Below, piece by piece: positions 16,522 through 51,637 of a DNA stretch of 64,000 bases. The translations under genes were made by a program, and so were the position numbers. The stretch's first letter is position 1. The number at the start of each line of letters is the position of its first letter. The stretch is from an uncultured bacterium. GTDB taxonomy: Bacteria > Omnitrophota > Omnitrophia > Omnitrophales > Aquincolibacteriaceae. A model generated the notes under the pieces. The model saw only the letters and a program-made list of their open reading frames with translations, was not told where the DNA came from and did not search any database. The DNA is taken from assembly GCA_964482725.1 (NCBI GenBank), contig CAYZYT010000003.1, forward strand, positions 49,252-113,251, read 5' to 3'.

Positions 16522-16540
16522 ATGCTTGAGGAAATCCCCA

Positions 16541-16650
16541 ACCCTAAATCCTAAACAAATCCAAAACAAAAAACTTCAAACTCAAAAGCGTGGTTTTGGA
16601 TTTCGAGTTTTAGACATTTGAGTTTATTTAGGGTTTAGTGTTTTGTGTTT
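16541..16650. repeat. A/T-rich imperfect inverted repeat of the CTAAAYCCTAAA / AAATCCAAAAC family, between convergent genes
   Basis: The left arm is ccctaaatcctaaacaaatccaaaac and the right arm gttttggatttcgag...tttagggtttag. The words are shared with the elements at 29791-29890, 30250-30360 and 39731-39828. It probably also acts as a bidirectional terminator. Confidence 0.5.
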
Positions 16651-16687
16651 AAGGTTTTGCGTGGAAGTTTCTTCGCATTTCAAAAAA

Positions 16688-23731: not shown

Positions 23732-23862
23732 GTCATTCCCGCGCCACCGCCTGCAAAGCGGCGGGGTCCCGCCCGACGGCGGGAAAAGCGGGAATCCAGA
23801 TCGGGATAAACTTCAGAGGGGATTCAGAGATTGGATTCCCGATAAAAACATTCGGGAATGAC
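23732..23862. repeat. MITE-like nested palindrome element, copy E1 of the GTCATYC...GRATGAC family
   Basis: Its termini are GTCATTCCCGCG ... CGGGAATGAC, with internal hairpins (ccgcctgcaaagcggcgg, tcccgcccgacggcggga, cccgataaaaacattcggg). It is a longer relative of the copy at 51574-51637. Confidence 0.5.
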
Positions 23863-27650: not shown

Positions 27651-29789
27651 GTGGCTTTCGATAAATCAAAATTCATCGACCAGTTCAAAACCGAGACGCG
27701 GGAGCGCATCCAGACGCTCAGTCTTGGCTTGCTGAAGCTTGAGAAAAATCCCTCGGACCGTGAACTTTTAAATTCCATGATGCGGGAGGCCCACAGCATT
27801 AAGGGCGGGGCCGGCATGATGGGGTACAAACGGATCGCGGACATCACCCATAAAATGGAAGACGGTCTTCAGCGAGCTTTGAACGGTCAAATCACCCTTA
27901 CAAAAACTTGTTTCGAAATGCTTTTTAAGTGCCTGGATGCCGTCGAGCCGCTTCTTCAGGATAAAGTGACCTGGAACGATCGCGGGATCAACCGAGACTT
28001 CACGGAAGATCTCTGCGTTTTGGCTGAAAAGATTTTTTCAGGAAATTTCAAGGGAGAAATCCCTCCGACGGTGGAAGCCGCGGTGGCATGTGCGGTGCCT
28101 GAAGCTCCGTTGGCGTCTGAACCCGAGGCGCCCCTGCCGCCGGCTTCGGAACCTGCGGCACCCGTGGAGGACAGTGTTCGGGTGGATATCGAAAAACTGA
28201 ACCGTCTGATTAATCTTTCCGGGGAGCTGCTCATTTCCAAAATTCGTCTCGAAGAACTTTCCAAAAACCTTTTGGAGAAAGCGGAAGCTCAGGGAGAAGC
28301 GTACGGGGTTTTCAGCGGAGTGGTGAAGGATCTGACCGCGGTGACGGACCGAATTGATCTCCTGACTGAGAACATGCAGGATGAAATGATGAAGGTGCGG
28401 ATGTTGCCGGTGGCTTATCTCTTCAATACGTTCCCCAGGGCGATGAGGGATCTTGCCCAGTCAAAAGGCAAGGGAATCGATCTTGTGATCGAGGGACAGG
28501 AGACCCATCTGGATAAAGCGATCCTAGATGAGATGAAAGTTCCTCTCATGCATCTTTTAAGGAATTCGGTGGATCATGGGATCGAATCTCCTGAGGAGAG
28601 GATAAGACAGAACAAGCCGGCTGTTGGGAAGATCTGTCTTTCTGCCACCCAAGAGGGTTCTCAGGTGGTCATTGCGGTAACGGATGATGGCCGCGGGATC
28701 GATGTGGCCAAGGTCAAGGAGATCGCGGTCGCGAAGGGGCTTGTTTCGCGAGAAAATATTCAGTCCATGGTGGATGAACAGGTCTTCCAGTTGCTTTTTG
28801 CCCCCGGGTTCAGCACGAGTGAAGAAGTGACCGAGATCTCGGGGCGCGGGGTCGGGCTTGATGTGGTCCGGGAAACGGTGATCCGGCTGAAGGGCATGGT
28901 GGAGGTCAGCTCCGATCCTTCTTTAGGGACGAGCTTTATCATCCGTTTGCCGCTGACACTTGCGATCACCAAAAGTCTTCTCGTGATGGCAGGAAGCGAT
29001 ACGTACGCCATCCCGGTCGATTCGGTGATCGAAACGGTCCGCATCGATCTGGACAATCTGAAGACTGTCGAGACCAAAGATGTGATCACCGTCCGCGGGC
29101 ACATTTTGCCGGTCGTGAAGTTGCATGATATTTTCGGGCTTCCCGCGAAAGGGATCCTGGAAAAGAAGTTTTTCCCCGTCCTGATCGTTCAGTCCGTTGA
29201 AAAAAGGGTCGGCCTCCTGGTGGATGAGCTTATCGGGCGCCAGGAGATCATCTCCAAAAGCATGGGGGATCCCTTGAAGCATGTGAAGCACATTTCGGGT
29301 GCGACGATCCTGGGAAGCGGGAAAGTGGTGATGATCCTGGATATCCCGTCGATCATCCATTCGGCGGAGGGCGGGGTGGTGCGGCCGTCGGAGGCAAAGC
29401 CCAAGGGGGCCCCCGGCAAAAAGAAAAAAACGATCTTGCTTGCCGAAGATACGCTCACGACTGCCATGCTCGAGAAAAACATCCTGGAGTCGGTGGGCTA
29501 TTCGGTCGTTATTGCGCGCGACGGCCAGGAAGCGCTCGACAAGGCTTCCCAGGAGAAATTCGATCTTGTGATCTCCGACGTTTTGATGCCGCGCATGGAC
29601 GGGTTTGAGCTGGTGACGCGCCTTCGAAGAGAAAAAAATTATAAAGAAATTCCGATCATCATCGTGACCACGCGTGAAAGCGATGAAGATAAGCGCAAAG
29701 GTATGGAAGCCGGAGCGAATGCCTATCTTCTGAAAAGCGATTTTACTTCCGAAGGTCTTCTGGAGACGATCGAGCGACTGCTCGGGTAA
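27651..29789 (+). CDS. cheA: CheA histidine kinase fused to a C-terminal CheY-like receiver (CheA-REC hybrid)
   Basis: The domain series is Hpt (REAHSIKGGAGMMGY), dimerisation, HATPase (GRGVGLDVV), CheW-like, then REC (ILLAEDTL...DLVISDVLMPRMDGFEL...LLKSDF). A GTG start has a GGGGG RBS-like motif upstream. Confidence 0.95.
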   Translation: MAFDKSKFIDQFKTETRERIQTLSLGLLKLEKNPSDRELLNSMMREAHSIKGGAGMMGYKRIADITHKMEDGLQRALNGQITLTKTCFEMLFKCLDAVEPLLQDKVTWNDRGINRDFTEDLCVLAEKIFSGNFKGEIPPTVEAAVACAVPEAPLASEPEAPLPPASEPAAPVEDSVRVDIEKLNRLINLSGELLISKIRLEELSKNLLEKAEAQGEAYGVFSGVVKDLTAVTDRIDLLTENMQDEMMKVRMLPVAYLFNTFPRAMRDLAQSKGKGIDLVIEGQETHLDKAILDEMKVPLMHLLRNSVDHGIESPEERIRQNKPAVGKICLSATQEGSQVVIAVTDDGRGIDVAKVKEIAVAKGLVSRENIQSMVDEQVFQLLFAPGFSTSEEVTEISGRGVGLDVVRETVIRLKGMVEVSSDPSLGTSFIIRLPLTLAITKSLLVMAGSDTYAIPVDSVIETVRIDLDNLKTVETKDVITVRGHILPVVKLHDIFGLPAKGILEKKFFPVLIVQSVEKRVGLLVDELIGRQEIISKSMGDPLKHVKHISGATILGSGKVVMILDIPSIIHSAEGGVVRPSEAKPKGAPGKKKKTILLAEDTLTTAMLEKNILESVGYSVVIARDGQEALDKASQEKFDLVISDVLMPRMDGFELVTRLRREKNYKEIPIIIVTTRESDEDKRKGMEAGANAYLLKSDFTSEGLLETIERLLG

Positions 29790-29790
29790 A

Positions 29791-29890
29791 ACAAATCCTA
29801 AATCTGAAATCCAAGCTCTATGCATAAAATCCGAAATACGAATATCGAAATTCGAAATAATTCATTAATTTCAAAAATCCAAACAAGATA
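29791..29890. repeat. Left arm of the inverted repeat flanking the four-helix-bundle ORF (AAATCCTAAAT / AAATCCGAAATACGAATATCGAAATTCGAAA words)
   Basis: It matches the reverse complement of 30250-30360 (for example AATCCGAATATCGAAACTCGAAA) and shares words with the repeats at 16541-16650 and 39731-39828. Confidence 0.5.
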
Positions 29891-29895
29891 AACCG

Positions 29896-30243
29896 ATGGC
29901 TGGAAAATACGATTTAGAAGAAAGCACGGAGAAATTCGCTCGGGATGTGATCCGGTTTTGTAAGGTCTTGCCTAAGAATGCCATCAATTTTGAACTTATG
30001 AGCCAAGTGGTGCGGTCGGCGGGATCCGTAGGTGCTAACTACATAGAGGCAAATGAAGCGCTTAGAAAAAAAGATTTTCTTCACCGCATTAAAATCTGTA
30101 GGAAAGAAGCGAAAGAGACCAGATATTGGTTGCGGCTTATCGGATCAGATGATGTCGCTATCGAAAAAGAGGCAAGCTGTTTGGGTAAGGAAGCTACTGA
30201 GCTGATGAACATCTTCGGAGCAATCCTCAGAAAAGCTTCATAG
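29896..30243 (+). CDS. Four-helix-bundle protein (23S rRNA intervening-sequence protein family)
   Basis: The 115-aa product MAGKYDLEESTEKFARDVIRFCKVLPKNAINFELMSQVVRSAGSVGANYIEANEALRKKDFLHRIKICRKEAKETRYWLRLI matches the conserved pattern of this family as I remember it. The ORF lies in the loop of a long inverted repeat. Confidence 0.8.
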   Translation: MAGKYDLEESTEKFARDVIRFCKVLPKNAINFELMSQVVRSAGSVGANYIEANEALRKKDFLHRIKICRKEAKETRYWLRLIGSDDVAIEKEASCLGKEATELMNIFGAILRKAS

Positions 30244-30249
30244 CTGGGC

Positions 30250-30360
30250 GTTTAAGCATTGGAAAATTCGAATTTGTTTCGAGTTTCGATATTCGGATTT
30301 AGGGTTTAGCGTTTAGAATTTAGGGTTTATTTTTGTTTCGATGTTCGGATTTTGATATTT
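30250..30360. repeat. Right arm of the inverted repeat flanking the four-helix-bundle ORF (TTTCGATATTCGGATTTAGGGTTTAG words)
   Basis: It is the reverse-complement partner of 29791-29890 and contains three TTTAGGGTTTA-like words. Confidence 0.5.
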
Positions 30361-30378
30361 GCATTTAAAGGGGGATCC

Positions 30379-31420: not shown

Positions 31421-31509
31421 CGTCATCCTGAGCACCGCGAAGGATCCCGCTTTGAGATTCTTCGGCCTGCTGCTTCTTGCTTCCGCAAGAAGCAGGTCTC
31501 AGAATGACG
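31421..31509. repeat. MITE-like nested palindrome element, copy E2 of the GTCATYC...GRATGAC family
   Basis: It reads cgtcatcctgagc ... gaaggatcccgctttgagattcttc ... ctgcttcttgcttccgcaagaagcag ... ctcagaatgacg, and is homologous along its length to 39829-39936. Confidence 0.55.
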
Positions 31510-31556
31510 TTTTTTGGGGTGCAGGATAAAACCATTTTTTTCATATAGGAAAATCC

Positions 31557-32750: not shown

Positions 32751-32895
32751 TTCCCGCTTCGCGTCGCTTCCGAAAAATTCAGCCGACCAGCTTTCAAGGC
32801 AGGGACAAGGGGTTTAGTCCGTGGGGGGGTATGTCGATAATGAGTTATCGACATAATTCAGGTTTATGAACTATCATTAGGGAGAATCATGCTAA

Positions 32896-33285
32896 GTGGC
32901 GGGGTGTTCCGTGGCTAAAAAAATTCTGCTGGTCGATGACAGCGCGTTGGTGTGCGCCATGATCAAGACGCAGTTGGAAGAGGCCGGTTATGAGGTCTTG
33001 ATCGCGAAAGATGGGCAGGAGGGTTTGGACCTCGCACGTAAGGAAGTGCCCGATTTTATCTTGCTGGATCTGATGCTTCCAAAACTCGATGGCTATAAAG
33101 TCTGCCGGATGCTCAAATTCGACAAAGTTTTCGAGCATATTCCCGTTATTATTTTTTCGGCTCGGGAGAGTGATGCGGATAAGAAACTCGCGGAGCAGTC
33201 CGGGGCCAACGCGTATATGGTCAAACCGTTCGATCCGGAGTTGTTCCATAAGACGATCCAGAAGTTGACCCGGAACTCAGCCTAG
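32896..33285 (+). CDS. Single-domain CheY-like response regulator (paralog 1 of 4)
   Basis: It has the acidic pocket LLVDDS, phosphoacceptor Asp in FILLDLMLP, and Lys in MVKPFD. It is closest to paralog 4. Confidence 0.85.
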   Translation: MAGCSVAKKILLVDDSALVCAMIKTQLEEAGYEVLIAKDGQEGLDLARKEVPDFILLDLMLPKLDGYKVCRMLKFDKVFEHIPVIIFSARESDADKKLAEQSGANAYMVKPFDPELFHKTIQKLTRNSA

Positions 33286-33313
33286 ATCATTCAGGGATGC
33301 GAGAGTTGCTTCT

Positions 33314-33724
33314 ATGAAAAAAAAGATTCTTTTGGTGGAAGATGAATCCCAGATACGGACGATCATTAGCGCGCGGTTGGCGGCCATGGGTTTTGAGGTG
33401 CTGATCGCGAAAGATGGTCTCGAGGGGCTGCATCTCGTTCGCAAGGAATCTCCGGACGTCGTTTTGTTGGATCTGATGCTCCCCGGAATGGACGGCTACA
33501 AACTATGCCGGATGATCAAATTCGATGTGGCTCTTGAACATATCCCGGTCGTCATTTGTTCGGCCAGGGCGAGTGATGAGGACAAGAAACGTGCAGAACA
33601 GTCCGGCGCTGACGCTTATCTGGTGAAGCCGTTCGAGATCAAATTGTTTGTGGAGACCATCCAGAAGCTGCTAGGGGTCTCACCTTCCAACCAACCTGAC
33701 GGGTTAGAAAAACCAGACTCGTGA
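33314..33724 (+). CDS. Single-domain CheY-like response regulator (paralog 2 of 4)
   Basis: It has the REC motifs LLVEDES, VVLLDLMLPGMDGYKLC and LVKPFE, plus a short C-terminal tail. Confidence 0.85.
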   Translation: MKKKILLVEDESQIRTIISARLAAMGFEVLIAKDGLEGLHLVRKESPDVVLLDLMLPGMDGYKLCRMIKFDVALEHIPVVICSARASDEDKKRAEQSGADAYLVKPFEIKLFVETIQKLLGVSPSNQPDGLEKPDS

Positions 33725-33764
33725 AAAGTTATTGGATAGAGTCAAGGGCGCGTGAGGGGCTTTT

Positions 33765-34133
33765 ATGAAAAAAAAGGTCCTTTTTGTGGAGGATGAATCC
33801 CAGATACGGGAGATCATTCTCGCGCGGTTGACCGCCATGGATTTTGAGGTGGTGGTCGCCAAAGACGGTCTCGAGGGTTTGCGGCTTGTTCGCACGAAAC
33901 GCCCCGACATGGTTTTACTGGACCTGATCCTTCCAAAACTGGACGGCTACAAGCTTTGCCGGATGATCAAGTTCGATACCACGCTTGAGCATATTCCGGT
34001 GATCATCTGCTCGGCCCTGGGAAGCGACGAGGACAAAAAACTCGCCGAACAAGCCGGCGCAGATGCGTACATGATCAAACCGTTCGATATGGATTTGTTT
34101 GTTTCCCTGGTCCAAAAGCTGACGGGTGTTTGA
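33765..34133 (+). CDS. Single-domain CheY-like response regulator (paralog 3 of 4)
   Basis: It has the REC motifs LFVEDES, MVLLDLILPKLDGYKLC and MIKPFD. It is closest to paralog 2. Confidence 0.85.
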   Translation: MKKKVLFVEDESQIREIILARLTAMDFEVVVAKDGLEGLRLVRTKRPDMVLLDLILPKLDGYKLCRMIKFDTTLEHIPVIICSALGSDEDKKLAEQAGADAYMIKPFDMDLFVSLVQKLTGV

Positions 34134-34213
34134 TCTTCAGGTTTGGATTTTGAGAACAGGCGTTTTTAGGGATTTTTATTTTGATAAAATGAAAGGTGAA
34201 TAGGGCGAATTTC

Positions 34214-34582
34214 ATGAAAAAAAGGATCCTTTTGGTGGATGATGAGCCCAATATTCTGACGATCGTGAGCGCGCGCCTGGTGGCCCTGGGTTTCGAAGTG
34301 CTGATCGCTCGAGACGGTCAGGAGGGCTTGGACCTTGCGCGCAAGGAATCTCCGGATGCGATCTTGTTGGATCTGATGCTTCCGAAGCTCGATGGTTATA
34401 AAGTCTGCCGGATGCTCAAATTCGACAAGGTTTATGGGCATATCCCGGTGATCATCTTTTCAGCCAAGGGGAGTGAGGAGTCTAAGAAGATGGCGGATCA
34501 GGCCGGTGCCGACGCGTATATGGTCAAGCCGTTCGATAACAAGTTGTTCGCGGAGACAATGAAGAGGCTGACAGGGGTTTGA
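34214..34582 (+). CDS. Single-domain CheY-like response regulator (paralog 4 of 4)
   Basis: It has the REC motifs LLVDDEP, AILLDLMLPKLDGYKVC and MVKPFD. An alternative GTG start lies at 34196. Confidence 0.85.
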   Translation: MKKRILLVDDEPNILTIVSARLVALGFEVLIARDGQEGLDLARKESPDAILLDLMLPKLDGYKVCRMLKFDKVYGHIPVIIFSAKGSEESKKMADQAGADAYMVKPFDNKLFAETMKRLTGV

Positions 34583-36270: not shown

Positions 36271-37487
36271 TGGAAGTCTCCTACCGCTATCAAGCCCGTG
36301 ATAAATTTGGACGGTCGGTGGCCGGACAGATGAGCGCCGTCTCCGATACGGAGGTCGCGACCAACCTTAAAACGAAGGGGCTGACTCCCTTTTCCATTGA
36401 GCCTATCGGGGAAAAGGCGTCCCGTGATTTTTTGGCGCCCTTTCGCCGCTTTAAACAAAGTGACGTCAATGCCTTTACGCGTGAGCTTTATACACTGACC
36501 CGGGCCGGATTGACCATCCTGGCATCTCTGGAGGTGATCGGGGAGCAAGACCGAAATCCCGTGCTCAAGAAGATCGTGGAAGGGCTCATCCAAAGTATCC
36601 GGGGCGGTGCGAGCATCTCCGATAGCTTGCAGCGTTATCCGAAGATCTTTAGCGTCCTTTACGTCAACATGATCCGGGCCGGTGAGGTTTCGGGTCGGCT
36701 GGAACAGATCCTGGAGCGCTTGATCTTCATTGGCGAGGCGGAAGAAAAACTTCAGATGCGCGTCAAGGCGGCGCTTCGTTATCCCGCCATTGTCTTTGGA
36801 GCTCTTGTGCTGGCGTTCCTATTTCTCACCAATTTTATCATCCCGCGTTTTGCCGTTCTTTTCACCCAAAGCGGTGTCGAGCTGCCGCTCCCGACCCGTC
36901 TCCTTTTAGGGATCCATGATGCTTTTACGAAGTATGGGTGGGTGACGGCGATCCTCGTGACCGCCCTGGTGATCTTTCTTATCCGATTTCTGAAGACTCC
37001 CACGGGGAAGCTTTGGCGTGATCGTCTCATGCTCAAGGTACCTGTTTTCGGGTCGTTAATTCTCAAATCTGAAATGTCGCGCTTTGCCCGCATCATGGCG
37101 CTTTTGATCCAGAGCGGGATCCCGGCACTTCGGGCTCTTGAGATCGCATCCGGAAGTTCTGATAATAAAGTGATCGTCGGAGCGATCGATAAGATTCGTG
37201 TGAGTGTTACGGAAGGGACCAGTATGACCGAGCCTATGAAGGCGAGCGGCATTTTTCCGCCTTCGGTGGTACGGATGGTCCATGTGGGGGAAGAGACCGG
37301 GAAAATTGATGAGTTGCTTTTAAAGGTCTCGGAATACTATGATATGCAGGTGGAATACACAGTTACCAATCTGATGGTTCTGATCGAACCGATGTTGATC
37401 GTGGTGCTCGGAGGGATGGTGTTTGTGCTGGCGCTCGGGATGTTCCTCCCGATGTGGAATATGATCAAGGTGTTTCAGCACGCATAG
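36270..37487 (+). CDS. pilC: Type IV pilus platform protein PilC/GspF family
   Basis: 405 aa with two GspF-type repeats and 3 TM helices. Its start overlaps the pilB stop (TAATG). Confidence 0.9.
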   Translation: MEVSYRYQARDKFGRSVAGQMSAVSDTEVATNLKTKGLTPFSIEPIGEKASRDFLAPFRRFKQSDVNAFTRELYTLTRAGLTILASLEVIGEQDRNPVLKKIVEGLIQSIRGGASISDSLQRYPKIFSVLYVNMIRAGEVSGRLEQILERLIFIGEAEEKLQMRVKAALRYPAIVFGALVLAFLFLTNFIIPRFAVLFTQSGVELPLPTRLLLGIHDAFTKYGWVTAILVTALVIFLIRFLKTPTGKLWRDRLMLKVPVFGSLILKSEMSRFARIMALLIQSGIPALRALEIASGSSDNKVIVGAIDKIRVSVTEGTSMTEPMKASGIFPPSVVRMVHVGEETGKIDELLLKVSEYYDMQVEYTVTNLMVLIEPMLIVVLGGMVFVLALGMFLPMWNMIKVFQHA

Positions 37488-37506
37488 GGTTCATGCCCTA
37501 TAGTGT

Positions 37507-37590
37507 TGGCACTGCTCAGGATTGGCTTATACGGGACCTAATGCAGGTGTTTACACCTATAATGCTACGAGCGGGACTTTCCAGTAATAA
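37507..37590 (+). pseudogene. Pilin gene 3' remnant (last ~25 codons plus the double stop TAATAA) with no start codon
   Basis: It translates in frame as ...LAYTGPNAGVYTYNATSGTFQ**, matching the C-termini of the two intact pilins at 37660-38034 and 38141-38515. An in-frame stop lies at 37501 and no start codon is present. Confidence 0.5.
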
Positions 37591-37659
37591 TTTTTCGATC
37601 GACTTAAGTAAAGTGTCCGGGAATGAATGATGTATAAAAATAACAAAAGGAGAAGTCCA

Positions 37660-38034
37660 ATGTTCAAACGCGAAAAAGGTTTTACGCTCATTGAATTGAT
37701 CATGGTGATCGTGCTGTTAGGTCTTTTGGCGGTTGTGGCGATCCCGCAATACACCAATCTCCAGACCCAGGCCAAGACGGCTGCCGAACAAGGGGTGGTC
37801 GGAGGTGTTCGTTCGGGCATCTACACCAAATATGCCGCCAATCTGGCGCAAAATGTCACTCCGGCCTACCCGGCAACACTAGGCGGAACTGGAAGTTGCA
37901 CAACGGGCAGTCCCTGTTTTGGCAATGTTCTTTCACAGGGGATCACGCAGGATTGGTCAGCCAGTGGTGCGACTTTCACGGGTCCCAATGGTGGTACTTA
38001 CACCTACAACGCTACGACCGGGACTTTCCAATAA
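37660..38034 (+). CDS. pilA: Type IVa major pilin (prepilin with N-terminal methylation motif)
   Basis: It has a 7-aa leader MFKREKG followed by FTLIELIMVIVLLGLLAVVAIPQY. An AAAAGGAGAA RBS precedes the ATG at 37660. Confidence 0.85.
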   Translation: MFKREKGFTLIELIMVIVLLGLLAVVAIPQYTNLQTQAKTAAEQGVVGGVRSGIYTKYAANLAQNVTPAYPATLGGTGSCTTGSPCFGNVLSQGITQDWSASGATFTGPNGGTYTYNATTGTFQ

Positions 38035-38140
38035 TAATCTTTGTGGCGGAGTGATGTGGGGTGTTTCTGCATTAATTGAGGCATAGGGCTGCAAAACGAA
38101 GCAGACCTGTTCCCGACAAATCAACAAAAGGAGAATGTAA

Positions 38141-38515
38141 ATGTTTAAACGTGCAAAAGGTTTTACGCTCATTGAATTGATCATGGTGATCGTGCTGTTA
38201 GGTCTTTTGGCGATCGTGGCGATCCCGCAATACACCAATCTCCAGACTCAGGCCAAGACGGCCGCAGAACAAGGGGTGGTCGGAGGCGTTCGTTCGGGGA
38301 TCTACACCAAGTATGCCGCCAACTTAGCGCAAAATGTCACGCCTGCTTTTCCGGCCACGTTGGATGCCAATGCGAACGGTGCTTGTGTGACCTGCTTTAC
38401 CAACGTTCTCTCTCAACCGATCAACGACACGACCTGGACTAAGTCCGGATCGGCTTATACAGGGCCTAATTCCGGCGTTTACTCCTACAACGCTACGACC
38501 GGGACTTTCCAGTAA
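38141..38515 (+). CDS. pilA: Type IVa major pilin, tandem paralog
   Basis: The leader MFKRAKG is followed by FTLIEL. Its N-terminal 75 aa are near-identical to the first pilin, the C-terminal variable region diverges, and the last ~20 aa are conserved. Confidence 0.85.
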   Translation: MFKRAKGFTLIELIMVIVLLGLLAIVAIPQYTNLQTQAKTAAEQGVVGGVRSGIYTKYAANLAQNVTPAFPATLDANANGACVTCFTNVLSQPINDTTWTKSGSAYTGPNSGVYSYNATTGTFQ

Positions 38516-38544
38516 TAAGATTTGTGCCCGATCACAGTTGTGGA

Positions 38545-38580
38545 AAAGCGGGCGTCCTCAAAGGACGCCCGCTTTTCGTT
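38545..38580 (+). terminator. Rho-independent terminator after the second pilin gene
   Basis: The sequence aaaaGCGGGCGTCCtcaaaGGACGCCCGCttttcg forms a 10-bp GC-rich stem followed by Ts. Confidence 0.8.
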
Positions 38581-38596
38581 ATCGAAAGGGTGATTC

Positions 38597-39730
38597 GTGA
38601 ATAAGAAGGGTTCGGCCCTGATGACGGTGCTTATCGTCGTCATCCTTATTCCCATTATTGTTTTTGCCACCACCAGTTTCATTACGTCTTCCTTGCTCCG
38701 CTACACCACGCAAAACAGGAACATCAAGGCCCTCTACCTTGCCCAGGCGGGGATCCATCGGGCCATTTACAAGATCAGGAACGGTGCGCCCGGCGCGCCT
38801 CTGACGGATTTTACCGACCATATCCCCCCAGGCTCGGACGACACAGCCCTTGTGCAACAGACGGGAATAAGTGGTAATGTCTATCAGGTCAAATCGACAG
38901 GAACCTCGGTTGCGGTAAATTATCCGACGCTGATCTCCCGAATGGTTTCTGTGCAATACAATGACAACACGAACAAAATCAGCCTTTGTGCTGAGGGGGA
39001 TGGCACCGGCTTTCCGCCTCTGTGTAGTGCGATTTGGTGGCCGTTTAGCGAGGGATCGGGATATACGACAGGGACCTCGCCCTATGGGGGCACTCTGACG
39101 CCTTCGACTGCAAACGGGCCGGCATGGACTACCGATCGTTATGGGGCCGCGGGGAAAGCGCTCAATTTTAATCAAGCCGCCACCACCAATTATGTGGTCG
39201 TTCCTGATTCTGCGGGGCTTGATCTCACCACCTCTGGAACACTCATGGCATGGATCCGTCCCTCTGCGATACCCAACCAAGCCCAACAGACCATTGTGCA
39301 TAAAGGGGGAGCTACGACAGCCACGAATGCTTATGCCCTTTTTCTTCGTCGACAGAGCACTAATCTAGCCAGAGTCCGATTTTGGATTTACAGTGGCACT
39401 GGGAATGGCACCCAATATTTGGCAAGTGGTGGTACGAATATGGGCCTTAACACTTGGTACCATATCGCCGGAGTTTGGGACTCAACCGGTTTGCGTGTCT
39501 ACCGCAATGGAGTGCCCGACGGTACTCTCGTGAGCGCCAATCGGGTGGCGAGGACTAATGCCAATTCCTTGTACATAGGTGCGAGTGGGACTTTGGCAGC
39601 AGCCCAAGAGTTTGCCGGGAAAATCGATGAAGTGTACATCTATGGTTGCCGAAAAACCGATGCGGAAATTAAGACTTATTACAATGCCACCTGCGCCGGA
39701 AGCGGCGCGACTCCTTGTCCGCAGCCTTGA
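38597..39730 (+). CDS. Minor pilin (PilX/GspK-like N-terminus lacking Glu5) with a C-terminal LamG/concanavalin-A-like jelly-roll domain
   Basis: A GTG start has a GAAAGGG RBS upstream. The N-terminus KKGSALMTVLIVVILIPIIVF is pseudopilin-like without E5. The C-terminal region (TLMAWIRP...WYHIAGVWDSTGLRVYRNGVPDG...SLYIGA...GKIDEVYIY) has a LamG-like pattern. Confidence 0.55.
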   Translation: MNKKGSALMTVLIVVILIPIIVFATTSFITSSLLRYTTQNRNIKALYLAQAGIHRAIYKIRNGAPGAPLTDFTDHIPPGSDDTALVQQTGISGNVYQVKSTGTSVAVNYPTLISRMVSVQYNDNTNKISLCAEGDGTGFPPLCSAIWWPFSEGSGYTTGTSPYGGTLTPSTANGPAWTTDRYGAAGKALNFNQAATTNYVVVPDSAGLDLTTSGTLMAWIRPSAIPNQAQQTIVHKGGATTATNAYALFLRRQSTNLARVRFWIYSGTGNGTQYLASGGTNMGLNTWYHIAGVWDSTGLRVYRNGVPDGTLVSANRVARTNANSLYIGASGTLAAAQEFAGKIDEVYIYGCRKTDAEIKTYYNATCAGSGATPCPQP

Positions 39731-39828
39731 TCCGGGGAATGAATGATAAACTCTAAACTCGAAATCCGAGACTCTAAACAAATTCAAATTTATGAAAACT
39801 CTAAACACTAGAGCGTCTCTCAATAGCG
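39731..39828. repeat. A/T-rich CTCTAAAC / CGAAATCCGAG repeat copy, same family as 16541-16650 and 29791-30360
   Basis: It contains ctctaaactcgaaatccgagactctaaacaaa...aaactctaaacacta. Confidence 0.4.
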
Positions 39829-40304
39829 TCGTCATCCTGAGCTTGCCCCGTTTTACGGGGCGGGCGAAGGATCTCACTTTGAGATTCTTCGGACTGCTGC
39901 CTTCTGCGAAGGCAAGAAGCAGGTCTCAGAATGACGCCTTTCTGCGAAAAGGTGTCACGCTGATAGAACTGATCATGGCCATGGTCATATTGGTCGCGAT
40001 CTCCATCCCGACGGCTTCTATGATCGGAGCGCAGATCCAGGGTATGGCCGAGTCTTCAGACCTTACGGCGGCCGGGAATGCGGCGCGAGCGCAGATGGAA
40101 AAACTCGAGAATACCGCCTATGGAAATGTCACGGCAAACAGCACCACCGTTTCTCCTTACGAGCTGAGCTGGGGCGTCGCGGAGACCGTGAATGGCACCG
40201 AAGCGATGAAAAATATTACGATGAGCATTCAGAGGACCGGGACGTCATCGGTTCTGTTGACGCTTTACAACACGTTCTGTAAGGGTGTGAGCGACGGCGA
40301 ATGA
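39792..40304 (+). CDS. Pseudopilin (type IV prepilin-like) whose 5' end is uncertain or disrupted by inserted repeats
   Basis: The mature-pilin-like segment G-VTLIELIMAMVILVAISIP starts at about 39951. The only in-frame ATG upstream is at 39792, and the 53 aa before the Gly are a read-through of the two repeat elements. No canonical start exists within 20 codons of the Gly. Confidence 0.45.
   Translation: MKTLNTRASLNSVVILSLPRFTGRAKDLTLRFFGLLPSAKARSRSQNDAFLRKGVTLIELIMAMVILVAISIPTASMIGAQIQGMAESSDLTAAGNAARAQMEKLENTAYGNVTANSTTVSPYELSWGVAETVNGTEAMKNITMSIQRTGTSSVLLTLYNTFCKGVSDGE
39829..39936. repeat. MITE-like nested palindrome element, copy E3 of the GTCATYC...GRATGAC family
   Basis: It reads cgtcatcctgagc ... 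ccccgttttacgggg ... gaaggatctcactttgagattcttc ... ctgccttctgcgaaggcaagaagcag ... ctcagaatgacg. Confidence 0.55.
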
Positions 40305-40383
40305 AAAATATCCGCGGGTTTACCCCGTTAGAGACTGGTCAAAGATCACTTCAGCTACGTTTTCCTGGTGAGGGGCAATAAGC

Positions 40384-40998
40384 ATGAACGCCTGGGTAGG
40401 GCAGGACTCGCGGAAGCGCTCAAAGAAGCGCTTCCTGTCTCTAACGGGGTTTACCCTTATTGAGCTTGTGATGGTAATTCTTATCGCGAGCGCTCTTTCC
40501 ATGGGCGGGTACTACATCATGCAGTTTATGGTCCAGAATACCTTCTACTTGCCGAACCAGGTCCAGACAGATCTCGCGGCCGCGCAGGCCTTGGAGACTT
40601 TGGTCGAAGGGGATACGGCGACCGTTCACGGATTACGTTTCTCAAGGACCGTAACGGCTCTTGCGCCCAACGACGTGACGGTGAAGGACCAGGATTGCGG
40701 AGATTTGAGGTTCTGGCTGGATACGGCGAATCACCAGCTCAAACGGCAGATTGGAGGGGGGGCCGAGACTGTGGTGCCGTATTTTATGCCTCCGAGTGTG
40801 TCTTTTACCGGATCCGGTGTCGGAGATGCTTTTTTCACTTATTACGATGGGTTGGAGGTAGAGACGAATGACCCTACCAAGGTGCGCCGCATCCAGATCA
40901 ATTTAATTGCTCAACAAGGAGCGGGTTCGGTCGATAGTTTTCAAGGGATCAGTCGTCAGAACACGTCCGTTAAAGTGAGTAAATATACATGCGTGTAA
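40384..40998 (+). CDS. Pseudopilin (prepilin-type N-terminal cleavage/methylation domain protein)
   Basis: The leader ...RFLSLTG is followed by FTLIELVMVILIASALSMGGYYIM. The mature part is about 180 aa. Confidence 0.6.
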   Translation: MNAWVGQDSRKRSKKRFLSLTGFTLIELVMVILIASALSMGGYYIMQFMVQNTFYLPNQVQTDLAAAQALETLVEGDTATVHGLRFSRTVTALAPNDVTVKDQDCGDLRFWLDTANHQLKRQIGGGAETVVPYFMPPSVSFTGSGVGDAFFTYYDGLEVETNDPTKVRRIQINLIAQQGAGSVDSFQGISRQNTSVKVSKYTCV

Positions 40999-41094
40999 AC
41001 CCGGAAGCTACCGTGTTTAGTTTATTCTTCCGGGTTAACGGTACGGTTCGGATCCATTAATTAAACACAACGGGTCATCATCGCCAGGAGTCTC

Positions 41095-42672
41095 ATGTCT
41101 TTTCTTTCTATAGAATTAGGGAAGCATCAGTTCAAGGTGCTTTTACTTGAAAGAGAGAAGGATGTTTTGGTGATCCGGCAAGATCTCGCTCTCATCATTC
41201 CTCCCGAGTTCATCAAATCCAAGATCCCCGAAGCGCTTAAGGATTTTATGCGGCGCTACGATGTTACGGATCACAAGATTTTTTTGACCCTTTCGGACCC
41301 GAGCGTGATCACCCTTAAGAATGCTGTGTTCCCCCTGATGGCGACAGGCGAACTTGTGGCGGCGATCGCATGGCACGCCAAAGAAGAGGGGGTCTTGACG
41401 GAGGATGTGATCTTTTTTAGTTATGAGATCGTCAAGGAGTTCGAGGACTCCGAAGGCGCGAAGAAGGTCGCGGTGACGTATTCAACCGTGAACCGGAAGC
41501 TTCTCGAAGAGTCGATCCGGATGCTGAAGCGGATGGGCCTCGAGGTCCTCCATGTGAGTGCTGCGCCGCTCAACACCCCGAAGGTTTTGCCGGCTGCGGC
41601 AGACAAGTCTCAATCTCAGATGGTGCTGCATCTGGGGTATTCCTCTTCGACTTGTGTGATCTATAAAAATGGAAAACTGGTTTTTATGAGAACCTTGTCG
41701 TTCTCTTACGAGAAAACCCGGTTGAGTCTGAACGACCCGCTCTTTTTGGGGGCGAAGTTCAGAACCCCGGCAGCCGAGGCGGAGATCGAGAAGGCGATCC
41801 AGACGATCGGGATCCCTCACGAAGAATTCTCGGTCGGGAGCGGGGAGAACCAGGCCACGCAGTTTTTTGGTCTCATGCGACCGGTCTTGGAAGGTCTTGT
41901 CCGTGAGATCCGTTATTCCCTGACTTATTTTATGCAAAACTTAAGTGAAGAAAAGCCTTCGGCTTTGTTCCTGACGGGACATGGCACGAGATTCAAGGGC
42001 CTGGATCTTTATCTTAACAGAGAGTTGGAAATGCCCGTTTCAAACCTGAGGCTGCCTTCGTCAGCCCGGTGCGACCAGGCCGCTGTCCTTGAAGACCCGA
42101 TTCGGCTCAGTCAGTGTGTGAGTGCGGTGGCAGGACTTCTTCCGGGTGAGAAGAGCGCGGATTTCATGCCTTTTGAGATTAAAAGCCAGAAGTTCGAAAC
42201 TTTCCAGAGAAGTGTCTTGAAAATGGTTACGCTTGTTGCGGCGGGGCTCTGTGTGAGCTCATTCATTTTAGCGAATCTTCACGGGGTTTTTTTAAAGGAG
42301 CGTTTCGGGCTTGGAGAAAAAGAGCTTGCGAACTTCGGGAAATTCGCTCAGGCTTCAGCCCAGGCGTTCCCGAAGTATTATTTGACGCGCGAGTTGGAAA
42401 AAGCGACGATCCCTGCCGACAAAGTTTTGCGTCTCTTGGGGCATTTGATGCCCGGGGGGTTGGCGATGCGCCATTTTGAAGTCGATTCTTCAAGCCGTTC
42501 CATGGTGGCAGATCTTGAGACGTCCGGGTTGGATGAGGGGGGGAATCCGATGGTCGAGGACCTCCTCAGGAGGCTCCGGGAAACGGGATTTTTTAAAAGG
42601 GTCGATGCGAAGCCCGTGAACGGATATTCGGTGTCCGTTTACAGGCTCGAAGGAGTTTTCCGAAATGATTAA
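41095..42672 (+). CDS. pilM: PilM-like actin-fold ATPase with a fused C-terminal PilN-like bitopic domain
   Basis: The N-terminal ~350 aa are PilM/FtsA-like (a CAGGAG RBS precedes the start). A TM helix (VTLVAAGLCVSSFILANL) and a periplasmic domain of about 130 aa follow. Confidence 0.65.
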   Translation: MSFLSIELGKHQFKVLLLEREKDVLVIRQDLALIIPPEFIKSKIPEALKDFMRRYDVTDHKIFLTLSDPSVITLKNAVFPLMATGELVAAIAWHAKEEGVLTEDVIFFSYEIVKEFEDSEGAKKVAVTYSTVNRKLLEESIRMLKRMGLEVLHVSAAPLNTPKVLPAAADKSQSQMVLHLGYSSSTCVIYKNGKLVFMRTLSFSYEKTRLSLNDPLFLGAKFRTPAAEAEIEKAIQTIGIPHEEFSVGSGENQATQFFGLMRPVLEGLVREIRYSLTYFMQNLSEEKPSALFLTGHGTRFKGLDLYLNRELEMPVSNLRLPSSARCDQAAVLEDPIRLSQCVSAVAGLLPGEKSADFMPFEIKSQKFETFQRSVLKMVTLVAAGLCVSSFILANLHGVFLKERFGLGEKELANFGKFAQASAQAFPKYYLTRELEKATIPADKVLRLLGHLMPGGLAMRHFEVDSSSRSMVADLETSGLDEGGNPMVEDLLRRLRETGFFKRVDAKPVNGYSVSVYRLEGVFRND

Positions 42673-47686: not shown

Positions 47687-47765
47687 CGTCATTTTGATCC
47701 TGAGCGTGGTGGGAGAGCCTCTCCGCTGGGATCCTTCGCGGGGCTCAGGATGACGAGGGTTTCGT
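47687..47765. repeat. MITE-like nested palindrome element, copy E4 of the GTCATYC...GRATGAC family
   Basis: It reads cgtcattttgatcctgagcg ... ggatccttcgcggggctcaggatgacg. Confidence 0.5.
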
Positions 47766-50093: not shown

Positions 50094-51578
50094 GTTCACT
50101 TTCGGATCTTTCCAACAGTCTCGGGGCAATCCGGCTTTCTGGGAACAAAGCTCGCTCAAGAACTCCTCCTTGCTCCATCCCGTTTCAGTGGCGACTTGTG
50201 GCAGAAAAACCCCGTGATGAAAATCTTTAGAAATTTGAACGCCGTGTTTCCCTAGCTCGATCTCTTGGGCCGTCTCCACTCTTCTGAGCGGGCTCAGGAC
50301 CGAGATCTCGTATTCCAGTTTCCCTAGTTCGTCCGCCGTGACAGGCCTGAAGCGCGGATCCTGAGAAGCGGCGGAAATGGCCATTTGCTGGATGATCTTG
50401 AAAAGAGGCTCCGAGGGCTCGAAGCGGCCGATACACCCGCGAAGCTGGCCATTTTCTTTCAGGGTTACAAATGCACCGAGCCGTGCTGTCAGCGCCGGGG
50501 ATGATGGAGAAAATTCCTGGGTTTTTCCAGTTTGGACGTAACTTTCCACGGTGGCGCGCGCGATCTTCAGAAGTTCTGCCTGGTCCTGCGCGGTCATCCC
50601 TTTTTCATCTGCCCTGGGTGAAAGCGGCTTTGTGCCGGGTTTTGAGGGAAAAGCGACCGCGCCGTAACCGACGACGCGGTTTTTGTCTCCTGCCGGAGAG
50701 TCCCCCGAGTTAGCATATTTTAAAAGAACCGGAGCGGGATCCCCGGCGGCTTTTGCCAGCAGCAGAGCCGTCCGGACTCCGCTGGGGCTACAAAGAAAAG
50801 TTTCGGCTTGCGGGATGCGTTCGGAAGCCAGGGTGTTCAGGATCGCGTTCAGATTCTCCGTTTTTCCGGTCAGGATGGCCTCTAGGACTTTCTTGTCCCC
50901 TTCAGAGGCTTCAGTGTAGGCCGGATAGTGCGACATGTCCGTGCTTGCGACGAGTACTGTTTTTTCATCCATAAGCGACGGGAGGATCGCCGCGAGTTTT
51001 TCTGCGAGTTCCGGGGAATCGCCGCTAAAAAGGATAGGCACGATCTTGAAATCTTTCAGGACGCGTTGGAGGAACGGAAGTTGTACCTCGAGCACGTGAT
51101 CGCCTTCGTAGATGTCCGGACGGTCGACGATGGCGGGGTCTGCGGCAAGGAGTTTTGAAGTGATCGCTTCATCCACGGGGACAAGACCGAGAGGCGTTTC
51201 AAAGGCGCCTCGGGCGTAGATCGCGATGCCGTCGAAAGAATGACGGTGGCTGTTCCCGATCAGGATGACCGTACGGATGTCCCGGTCTTGGAGCACTTTA
51301 TAGGCGTATGCGGCGACCGGTCCCGAATAAACATAACCAGCATGCGGGACCATGATCGCGCGGATCGGTTCCTTGATCTTGGGTGGATCGGCCTGGCGAA
51401 GGAGGGCATCCACGTATGGCTCAAGGGTTGCTTTGTCTCCCGGATAAAATCCTCCGGCCACAGCGGCTTTCCGGATGTTGTTTCCTGGGGCCTCTTTTTT
51501 TTCTCCGGACAAGCTGAACGTAAAGGCTAGGGAAAGAATAGCGAATAGGAGAACATGGACGCTTTTCTTTTTTGTCAT
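50043..51578 (-). CDS. AmmeMemoRadiSam system fused protein: Memo-like (protein B) N-terminal domain plus AMMECR1 (protein A) C-terminal domain, with an N-terminal hydrophobic leader
   Basis: The Memo motifs are AGGFYPGD and MVPHAGYVYSG, and the AMMECR1 motif is LRGCIGRFEP. The start was chosen at MTKKKSVHVLLFAILSLAFTF; the ORF extends further upstream only by reading through repeat E5. It is adjacent to the partner radical SAM gene. Confidence 0.75.
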   Translation of the reverse strand: MTKKKSVHVLLFAILSLAFTFSLSGEKKEAPGNNIRKAAVAGGFYPGDKATLEPYVDALLRQADPPKIKEPIRAIMVPHAGYVYSGPVAAYAYKVLQDRDIRTVILIGNSHRHSFDGIAIYARGAFETPLGLVPVDEAITSKLLAADPAIVDRPDIYEGDHVLEVQLPFLQRVLKDFKIVPILFSGDSPELAEKLAAILPSLMDEKTVLVASTDMSHYPAYTEASEGDKKVLEAILTGKTENLNAILNTLASERIPQAETFLCSPSGVRTALLLAKAAGDPAPVLLKYANSGDSPAGDKNRVVGYGAVAFPSKPGTKPLSPRADEKGMTAQDQAELLKIARATVESYVQTGKTQEFSPSSPALTARLGAFVTLKENGQLRGCIGRFEPSEPLFKIIQQMAISAASQDPRFRPVTADELGKLEYEISVLSPLRRVETAQEIELGKHGVQISKDFHHGVFLPQVATETGWSKEEFLSELCSQKAGLPRDCWKDPKVNLQVFTADVFSEKEKRH

Positions 51579-51637
51579 TCCCGCGAAAGCGGGAATCCAG
51601 GCGTATGGATCCCCGATAGAAGCCTTCGGGGATGACA
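51574..51637. repeat. MITE-like palindrome element, copy E5 of the GTCATYC...GRATGAC family
   Basis: It reads gtcattcccgcgaaagcgggaatccagg ... gatccccgatagaagccttcggggatgacag. The Memo-fusion ATG (minus strand, 51576-51578) lies inside its first arm. Confidence 0.5.

Follow-up and report, generated by a model that had tools for sequence, protein, structure and literature searches.

Introduction

Among the repeated elements that bacteria carry, the Rickettsia palindromic elements (RPEs) are the standard example of elements that often insert in frame into host open reading frames (ORFs), and MITEs (miniature transposable elements with inverted repeats) such as Correia/NEMIS, ERIC and BOX are known to give regulatory signals to neighbouring genes (PMC10969869). 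Here, we report the analysis of a 64,000-nt stretch of DNA from an uncultured Omnitrophota bacterium (GenBank assembly GCA_964482725.1, contig CAYZYT010000003.1), hereafter the window, in which a minor pilin gene has a leader of 53 codons that contains two inserted repeats: an A/T-rich 'CTAAAC' repeat and a palindromic element that we named MITE1. The gene is part of an operon that is type IV pilus/type II secretion-like. Prepilin leaders have, according to the textbooks, about 5-7 residues in type IVa pilins and about 15-30 residues in type IVb pilins.

As with the RPEs, to which the present case comes closest, MITE1 is a short palindromic repeat with an open frame of its own, which sits inside genes without breaking them and adds a conserved peptide. 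It differs from the RPEs in that the phylum and the element families are other ones, and in that the insertions are concentrated in the leader stretch of two minor pilins; since the inserts sit in the leader, the added peptide should be cleaved off and not retained in the mature protein. Moreover, unlike the RPEs, the inserts described here sometimes break the old frame and donate a new start codon. With Correia/NEMIS, ERIC and BOX, the window elements have in common that an inserted repeat alters the expression of a downstream coding sequence, but no promoter-like site was found in them, and they give a start codon and leader residues instead of transcription signals. The window pilin resembles the type IVb pilins in having a leader far beyond the 5-7 residues of type IVa and a residue other than Phe at position +1; however, type IVb leaders are native sequence, whereas the extra length in the window pilin is inserted repeat DNA over 8-10 native residues. 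When compared with the GspI/XcpV/EpsI minor pseudopilins, it shows a similar mature size (116 residues) and Glu at +5, and its model has an N-terminal hydrophobic helix and a small beta-sheet head, but its leader has 53 residues instead of about 6-10, Val replaces Phe at +1, and its GspK-like neighbour has a LamG domain. In the literature, of which our coverage was incomplete, we found no direct precedent for MITEs in prepilin leaders or signal peptides, or for prepilin leaders this long. This kind of event is known already; the twist in these loci is the recurrent, frame-preserving colonisation of minor-pilin leaders.

Results

A minor pilin gene with a predicted leader of 53 residues

The ORF list and a codon-by-codon reading placed the minor pilin ORF at 39792..40304 of the + strand, with 170 aa, and the public gene calls begin this protein at the same ATG (P0001, 170 aa). 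The pilin frame is open from 39750 onward, after an in-frame TAA at 39747, and 53 codons separate ATG 39792 from the cleavage site, where the Gly codon GGT at 39951 is followed by VTLIELIMAMVILVAIS. ATG 39792 is the sole in-frame ATG 5' of this Gly codon, and the nearest other in-frame candidate starts are TTG 39879, located 24 codons 5' of the Gly, TTG 39843, and CTG 39894, 39897 and 39942. A first-pass annotation, made by a model from the letters of this DNA, had set the beginning of the mature-pilin-like sequence at a Gly at about position 39951, had named ATG 39792, within an A/T-rich repeat, as the only upstream in-frame ATG, and had listed no in-frame ATG, GTG or TTG in the 20 codons before the Gly; our codon list agreed on all of these. 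The site K-G/V-T-L-I-E-L, where the slash stands for the expected cleavage, fits the prepilin peptidase motif, quoted in PMC8578077 as [KRHEQSTAG]-G-[FYLMIV]-[ST]-[LT]-[LIVP]-E-[LIVMFWSTAG], with Gly at -1 and Glu at +5. In the profile searches, NCBIfam TIGR02532 matched pilin residues 52-70 with 20.5 bits (cut-off, 16.3), and Pfam PF07963 (N_methyl) gave 21.0 bits, marginally short of its gathering score of 21.2. The family alignment showed that the +1 residue is Val and not Phe, and that it is Ile in some of the insertion-free orthologs. The leader is basic, with 11 K/R against 2 D/E, yet it has 53 residues and so falls outside the 'short leader' of class III. By the positive-inside rule, an established principle, a basic leader suits a cytoplasmic N-terminus.

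The AlphaFold model of the pilin had a mean pLDDT (predicted local distance difference test) of 75-94 in blocks of 10 residues from residue 51 on, and residues 1-44, with values below 50, were modelled as disordered. In the PDB, Foldseek gave as best matches one chain of 116 residues from the XcpGHIJK pseudopilus model (9a1f_R), together with chains from the crystal entries of EpsI:EpsJ (2ret) and XcpV:XcpW (5bw0), with target-normalised template modelling scores of 0.54-0.62, probabilities of 0.99-1.0 and weak E-values, from 5.5e-3 to 0.05. The size of the matched chains suggested that they are the GspI-class partner. The NCBIfam profile search gave no match of the GspI equivalog profile to the pilin. 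From fold, size and synteny, we infer that the protein is probably a GspI/XcpV-like minor pilin, and on the same grounds the protein of the upstream gene, which is pilin-like and carries a LamG domain, this pilin and the product of the next gene would fit a GspK/I/J-type tip complex. The mature pilin had 28 protein homologs, and those that are named belong to Omnitrophota/Omnitrophica, as do the named related DNA loci. An identical gene was found in the Logan assembly of SRR12261225 (contig L001), and the JGI contig L006 showed the same architecture and frame relations with about 3% substitutions.

Two repeats within an ancestral short leader

The insertion-free orthologs have leaders of 8-10 residues that begin near the stop codon of the LamG gene; examples are MRRNLSEKKG/V, MRRKTHSKDG/V and MRPNLNSQKG/I, whose ATG is located within the LamG gene, 17 nt from its end, and leaders of the form MRRNxxxKKG/V overlap the LamG end in this way. 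Three relatives (L003, L015 and L013) share the LamG tail of the window, ...CAGSGATPCPQP followed by the stop, and encode the 8-residue leaders MRKKTKRG/I, MTKKTTRG/I and MLTKIERG/V. Their DNA reads ...CCTTGATCCtGGGAATGAcaATG, with the leader starting about 14 nt past the LamG stop, and the homologous ...GGGAATGAcaATG opens the 8-residue leader in the relatives that were aligned (these three and L021). At the same place, the window DNA reads ...CCTTGATCCGGGGAATGAATGATAAACTC, and for this reason we consider that the window retains the ancestral ribosome-binding site (RBS), GGGGA, and ATG. This ATG, at 39743, is now one frame step off the pilin, and it leads into an upstream ORF (uORF) of 22 codons that persists in L006 with 15 codons and the identical TAG (Table 1). 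A programmed frameshift from the ancestral ATG into the pilin frame was also considered and was set aside, as inspection of the uORF revealed no slippery site for the required +1 shift.

The A/T-rich stretch is about 55 nt long in the window, compared with 34 nt in L006. When positions 39752-39806 were deleted in silico, the ancestral ATG was placed in frame with the pilin, as ATG-ATA-AAC-ACT-AGA-GCG (MINTRASLNS...), and the DNA after it, encoding 'N-T-R-A-S-L-N-S', resembles that of 'N-C-R-A-D-F-L-N' in the L021 leader. Within the window, positions 39742-39806 matched the reverse strand of 30250-30313 with 74% identity over 65 nt (E = 2e-7), and positions 39763-39816 matched 16540-16591 with 70% identity; therefore, the A/T-rich stretch belongs to a dispersed 'TTTAGGG/CTAAAC' repeat. 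Collectively, these comparisons point to the A/T-rich piece being an insertion or local expansion that broke the old frame and brought ATG 39792, which happens to be in frame or was selected to be so. The RNA around this ATG was predicted to be A/U-rich and weakly structured. The first-pass annotation had described the codons between ATG 39792 and the Gly as a read-through of the A/T-rich repeat and a MITE-like copy, both of them inserted. This description held, because both stretches match other copies in the window and the relatives with the same LamG tail have 8-residue leaders; likewise, the comparison with orthologs that it had proposed turned up insertion-free genes with short leaders, and not the same long leader.

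As a separate observation, A/T-rich TTTAGGG/CTAAAC repeats with a telomere-like motif are present in the window at 16540-16660, 29787-29916 and 30251-30376. One of them is a palindromic pair between convergent genes, and the others lie in a 590-nt gap 5' of a CheB-like gene.

MITE1 lies in its only open frame

MITE1 has the terminal inverted repeats, the small size and the dispersed copies of a MITE. Its core, GTCATCCTGAGC...CTCAGAATGAC, is located at 39831-39935, and the pilin frame translates the element as VILSLPRFTGRAKDLTLRFFGLLPSAKARSRSQND, which is its only fully open + frame; of the six frames, one per orientation is fully open. An intergenic copy at 31437-31514 shared 85% identity with the element over 78 nt, and a third, degenerate copy was found on the minus strand at 47688-47754. 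Together with these three copies in the 64-kb window, MITE1 was found in four further Omnitrophota loci, both intergenic and genic, with cores of 67-105 nt and no transposase. The core lengths 69, 87 and 105 nt are each divisible by three, which suggests that the family has been shaped by an in-frame lifestyle. The host genes seen belong to two families, both of minor pilins, and the independent genic copies (the window and L020 in this gene, L002 and L023 in the next gene) were, in all four cases, in the single open phase and in the same orientation. The L006 copy is the short form, with an 87-nt core, and lacks the extra nested hairpin of the long form.

The flanks of the copies that were read showed no consistent direct repeat that could be taken as a target-site duplication. 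The 181-nt stretch around MITE1 was predicted to fold at -70.3 kcal/mol (z = -4.9 against shuffled sequences), with three inner hairpins closed by the terminal repeats. A search of positions 37000-42000 against Rfam at E <= 1 gave only a chance match to an sRNA elsewhere, and thus these elements are not a described RNA family. With regard to the encoded peptide, a 47-residue query yielded no candidate, and an exhaustive HMMER search over 1.84 billion representatives had the close relative P0002 as its only hit. A scan of the + strand at 39700-39950 found no sigma-70-like promoter and no terminator, and the overall counts were those expected from shuffled sequences. The short out-of-frame ORF at the right end of MITE1, noticed in the first-pass annotation, was read again in the sequence and is listed in Table 1.

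The intergenic copy of MITE1 (31422-31508), which has the CheB-like gene on one side and the following response-regulator/kinase gene on the other, is directly followed by TTTTTT. This copy could act as an intrinsic terminator.

Leader insertions recur in the minor pilin genes of Omnitrophota

About 185 kb of Omnitrophota sequence were sampled, and the independence of the insertions was judged from the element types and the flanks. In the gene under study, leader insertions were present in 7 of 23 loci. Among the 28 protein homologs, seven had leaders of 33-67 residues, and these represent six independent events: window/L006, L020, L021, L022, L023 and L024. The palindromic inserts were of at least four kinds: L020 carries MITE1, L021 carries GTCATTCCCG...CGGGGATGAC, L022 has an element of the CCCCCTCTCC type, and both L023 and L024 have small GC-rich hairpins. 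All six events keep an ATG-initiated ORF into the pilin, and in five its start is the ancestral ATG, in the overlap with the LamG gene. Disrupted leaders were also suspected behind three 'MAMVIL' gene calls (P0021, P0023 and P0028), and these were discarded upon inspection of the DNA: in two of them the short leader is intact, and the third (L026) begins at the edge of its contig.

The next minor pilin gene had leader insertions in 13 of 23 distinct loci, the window included (Table 1). In nine of these loci the frame stays open from the ancestral ATG on, which for L022 and L028 holds up to the contig end, and every locus that could be read through the cleavage site keeps an ATG-initiated ORF. 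When the six insertions of the first gene were pooled with twelve of the next gene, leaving out L016, 14 of the 18 kept the frame of the ancestral ATG open, where at most one third would be expected (binomial P = 1.4e-4, or 2e-7 when stop codons were allowed for). Moreover, the distribution among pilin genes of the same loci was uneven, with insertions in 0/19 major pilin genes vs 20/46 of the two minor pilins (Fisher P = 2.5e-4). Read from the DNA, leader insertion is a recurrent, lineage-wide and frame-preserving pattern that also hits the next gene; it went unseen in the first-pass annotation, as did the uORF at 39743-39811, TTG 39879 with its Shine-Dalgarno-like sequence and the separate element at the cleavage-site codons of the next gene.

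The GTCATTCCCG...CGGGGATGAC family has intergenic copies in the window as well, at 51574-51636 (63 nt) and 23732-23862 (a 131-nt composite). In relatives, it lies in frame in minor-pilin leaders, at 3061-3141 of L021 and in the next-gene leaders of L015, L020 and L022.

A second element at the start of the next minor pilin gene

In its canonical form, the next gene begins with an ATGA-overlapped MKNxRG/FTLIEL, with five leader residues before the Gly. In the window, the old start is truncated by a 123-nt element, MITE3, and the flanks of the element carry an 8-9-nt direct repeat, G(G)GTTTACC (40316-40324 and 40447-40455), which corresponds to the Gly-Phe-Thr codons of the cleavage site of the pilin. 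MITE3 supplies the Shine-Dalgarno-like GGTGAGGGG and ATG 40384. The same type of element was found at the same site in a distant relative (L018, about 600-760), and remnants of its left end were detected in L022 and L020; this points either to prepilin codons being targeted site-specifically or to an insertion of great age. The terminus of MITE3 is CCGTTAGAGAC, and GGGTTTACC may be a candidate target of this element in prepilin genes. The possibility that 40325-40447 is an invertible segment was rejected, as inspection of the inverted sequence showed no entry of the ancestral frame into the pilin, and the 8-9-nt direct repeat fits transposition instead.

Evidence for function and alternative explanations

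The mature regions of the window gene and its L006 counterpart differed by 6 synonymous and 5 non-synonymous substitutions, and the ratio of non-synonymous to synonymous rates (dN/dS) was 0.255, with a probability of 0.029 of finding at least 6 synonymous changes among 11 under neutrality. For the LamG gene, which is surely functional, the same comparison gave a dN/dS of 0.32. In the leader, we found 4 non-synonymous changes, 1 synonymous change and one 18-nt in-frame indel, which would fit a demand only for openness. The intact ORF, the cleavage motif and the dN/dS predict that the gene is probably still functional.

The explanation that we favour, and that we regard as probable, is that this is a functional gene with repeats inserted in its leader, in which translation would begin at ATG 39792 and the leader of 53 residues would be cleaved at K53-G54/V55. 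The ancestor would have had a short leader of about 8-17 residues, starting right after the LamG stop. In a first step, the A/T-rich repeat would have put ATG 39743 out of frame and brought ATG 39792 as a replacement; in a second step, MITE1 would have landed in the sole stop-free phase, adding 36 codons. The precursor would then be translated from ATG 39792 with a strongly basic, disordered and cytoplasmic leader, and the prepilin peptidase would remove it. Because the leader is cut off, the mature pilin would be unchanged and the insertions would cost little; that the elements accumulate here and not elsewhere in an operon with almost no intergenic DNA may be due to the inserted peptides being nearly neutral. 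Ribosomes that finish the uORF 20 nt past the new ATG may aid initiation at ATG 39792 by reinitiation. The overlap of the uORF resembles the 17-nt LamG overlap of the orthologs, which makes termination-reinitiation plausible, albeit speculative. Several findings weigh against this explanation. No prepilin peptidase gene was found among the scanned window proteins, and it may be elsewhere in the genome; the strong hairpin set inside the coding region could hinder translation; and 53 residues exceed the textbook ranges for prepilin leaders. In addition, ATG 39792 has no Shine-Dalgarno sequence, unlike most of the operon genes that were checked, the comparison between the window and L006 is based on only 11 substitutions and has small power, and both adjacent minor pilin genes are here without their ancestral starts, which could mean that the tip-pilin set is decaying.

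These last three observations also count in favour of the reading that the gene is a recently inactivated pseudogene, in which the A/T-rich insertion severed the RBS and start and the ORF remains intact because there has been too little time for decay; the fact that the ancestral ATG 39743 is out of frame and leads to the 22-codon uORF points in the same direction. We consider this unlikely, because two lineages that share the insertions and have since diverged (dS of 0.075 here and 0.23 in the LamG gene) both retain the ORF, the ATG and the cleavage motif intact, the dN/dS of 0.26 is no worse than that of a functional neighbour, six of six independent leader insertions keep an ATG-initiated ORF, and the putative GspJ- and GspK-like partners that are normally needed with a GspI-like tip pilin are present. 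Inactivation was one of the two options put forward in the first-pass annotation, and the intact ORF in a relative, this ratio and the six ORF-keeping insertions make it the less likely of the two. The other option, that the element now provides promoter and start, stood in part: the start lies in an inserted repeat, since ATG 39792 does, but the consensus scan of 39700-39950 gave no sigma-70-like site to accompany it, and the operon is tightly packed. A functional gene may alternatively have its start inside or just after MITE1, at TTG 39879, with a leader of 25 residues, or more remotely at CTG 39942 (MRKG), so that MITE1 would give the start. Of the other five full-length MITE1 copies collected, four have the Shine-Dalgarno-like GAAGGA followed after 7 nt by the in-frame TTG, an arrangement that may represent a latent ribosome-binding site and start codon of the element; moreover, 25 residues are within the known leader lengths of type IVb, and in the next gene MITE3 does supply such a pair of signals. 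Nevertheless, we find an internal start quite unlikely: GAAGGA and TTG lie in the stem and the loop of a predicted stable hairpin, L020 has TTA, which is not a start codon, at this position, in five orthologs the frame stays unbroken across the insert from the ancestral ATG on, for which there would be no need with internal starts, and CTG is a very poor start in bacteria and has no Shine-Dalgarno sequence here. Finally, an assembly or sequencing artefact, either a repeat-induced chimera or a frameshift masking a short leader that would begin at ATG 39931, is highly improbable. MITE copies are known to cause misassembly of metagenomes, and one added base would give an 8-residue leader, MTPFCEKG, from ATG 39931; however, the window, the identical L001 and L006 have the same junctions and frame, so this is not a sequencing error and the artefact is effectively refuted. 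An error that would restore a short conventional leader, which the first-pass annotation had asked to look for, was thus not found, the three independent assemblies sharing the frame relations and no single-base correction common to them being able to bring such a leader back.

The pilus operon and the features of the locus

The pilus operon is complete within the window, with genes for PilB (34579), PilC (36270), two major pilins (37660 and 38141), the LamG pilin (38597), the minor pilin under study, a second minor pilin (40384), a PilM/N fusion (41095), a PilO-like protein and a secretin (43741). Chemosensory genes and four tandem response regulators are located 5' of PilB. The same gene order was found again in relatives, with synteny conserved in all loci, and in most orthologs the LamG gene either runs into the start of the minor pilin gene or ends directly next to it. 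The N-terminus of the LamG protein gave a weak match to GspK (E = 0.0044), and the next gene gave a weak match to TIGR01711, gspJ (E = 0.0014). The positions of the features are collected in Table 1.

Further observations were made on the repeats and the divergence of the operon. Just 5' of PilB, at 32888-34548, there are four repeat units of ~400-450 nt, 65-78% identical and each about the size of a response-regulator gene; a further match of this repeat family is to the receiver domain encoded at 31557. The adjacent major pilin genes (37637-37877 vs 38118-38358) are 89% identical over 241 nt, and their 3' ends and downstream flanks are repeated too (37516, 37963 and 38444), which suggests a recent tandem duplication or gene conversion. 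When the LamG gene was compared with that of L006 (38597-39730 vs 1-1090 of L006), dS was 0.23 and reached 0.52 in the last 120 codons, against only 0.075 in the downstream minor pilin; this contrast hints at recombination or mosaicism inside the operon.

Table 1. Features of the minor pilin locus in the window, and leader inserts of the next gene in the window and related loci
Feature	Position	Strand	Remarks
Upstream pilin-like gene with Laminin_G_3 (LamG) domain	38597..39730	+	Pfam PF13385, E = 3.5e-29; stop TGA 39728-39730
Ancestral ribosome-binding region and start	39734..39745	+	GGGGA 39734-39738, ATG 39739, ATG 39743; from alignment to L003, L015, L013, L021
uORF, 22 codons from the ancestral ATG across the A/T-rich repeat	39743..39811	+	Stop TAG 39809-39811, 20 nt beyond the A of ATG 39792
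A/T-rich 'CTAAAC' repeat insertion, ~55 nt	39752..39806	+	Boundaries uncertain by about 4 nt (AAAC flanks both ends)
Present start (presumed)	39792..39794	+	Only in-frame ATG; ATG and frame conserved in L006
MITE1, palindromic, 108 nt = 36 codons	39829..39936	+	Terminal inverted repeats CGTCATCCTGAG and CTCAGAATGACG
Extra nested hairpin TTGCCCCGTTTTACGGGGCGGG, mark of the MITE1 long form	39843..39864	+	Missing in the L006 copy, an 18-nt in-frame difference
Candidate internal start: GAAGGA 39866-39871, 7 nt, TTG 39879	39866..39881	+	Both in predicted hairpin; leader would be 25 residues
Out-of-frame 10-codon mini-ORF	39931..39963	+	ATG within the MITE1 right terminal repeat AATGACG; TGA 39961-39963; same in L006
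Prepilin peptidase recognition site K-G/V-T-L-I-E-L	39948..39971	+	Cleavage expected between G54 and V55 (K53-G54/V55)
Mature minor pilin, 116 residues, GspI/XcpV/EpsI-like, and stop codon	39954..40304	+	From model, Foldseek and homologs
Truncated remnant of the old start of the next gene (MKNIRGFTPLETG... and stop), 26-residue dead end	40301..40381	+	ATG overlaps the pilin stop as ATGA
MITE3, 123 nt	40325..40447	+	Terminal repeats CCGTTAGAGACTGG and CCTGTCTCTAACGG
Next minor pilin, weakly GspJ-like	40384..40998	+	Starts in MITE3; 22-residue leader MNAWVGQDSRKRSKKRFLSLTG/FTLIEL, basic, ending ...KRFLSLTG/FT
Next-gene leader insert, window and L018			MITE3; ancestral frame broken, new in-frame ATG within insert
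Next-gene leader insert, L002			MITE1; open from ancestral ATG
Next-gene leader insert, L023			MITE1 long form, extra hairpin as in window copy; open from ancestral ATG
Next-gene leader insert, L015			GTCATTCCCG-type; open from ancestral ATG
Next-gene leader insert, L022			GTCATTCCCG-type and MITE3 left-end remnant; open to contig end
Next-gene leader insert, L021			Small palindrome; open from ancestral ATG
Next-gene leader insert, L026			GTCATTGCGAGC-type; open from ancestral ATG
Next-gene leader insert, L004 and L007			Unclassified; open from ancestral ATG
Next-gene leader insert, L028			Unclassified; open to contig end
Next-gene leader insert, L020			MITE3-like left end and GTCATTCCCG-type; broken, in-frame ATG in insert, contig ends before cleavage site
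Next-gene leader, L016			22-residue leader; different start arrangement, without ATGA overlap

Discussion

The insertions described here do not change the basic picture of type IV pili or of MITEs; in these loci, selfish DNA is lodged where harm is small. A broader proposal, which we put forward tentatively and as possible rather than probable, is that the leaders of the Omnitrophota tip pilins are a recurrent safe harbour for unrelated MITE families, whose insertions would be translated and processed as class III signal peptides of 33-67 residues, a length well beyond that of any known to have been described, sometimes with a start or RBS supplied by the MITE. The hairpins might, in addition, keep translation low in comparison with the insertion-free major pilin, and the finding of inserts in 20/46 minor but 0/19 major pilin genes hints at a link to the expression level.

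For the annotation of genomes, the results indicate that prepilin genes in uncultured phyla can carry repeat-built leaders of about 30-67 residues, and that programs for gene calling or pilin prediction which count on a short leader will overlook these genes or place their starts wrongly. For the study of mobile elements, they offer a natural experiment on where selfish palindromic DNA persists in a compact genome, namely in a discarded peptide and in frame. Provided that these long leaders undergo translation and cleavage, prepilin peptidases would tolerate far longer cytoplasmic leaders than has been assumed.

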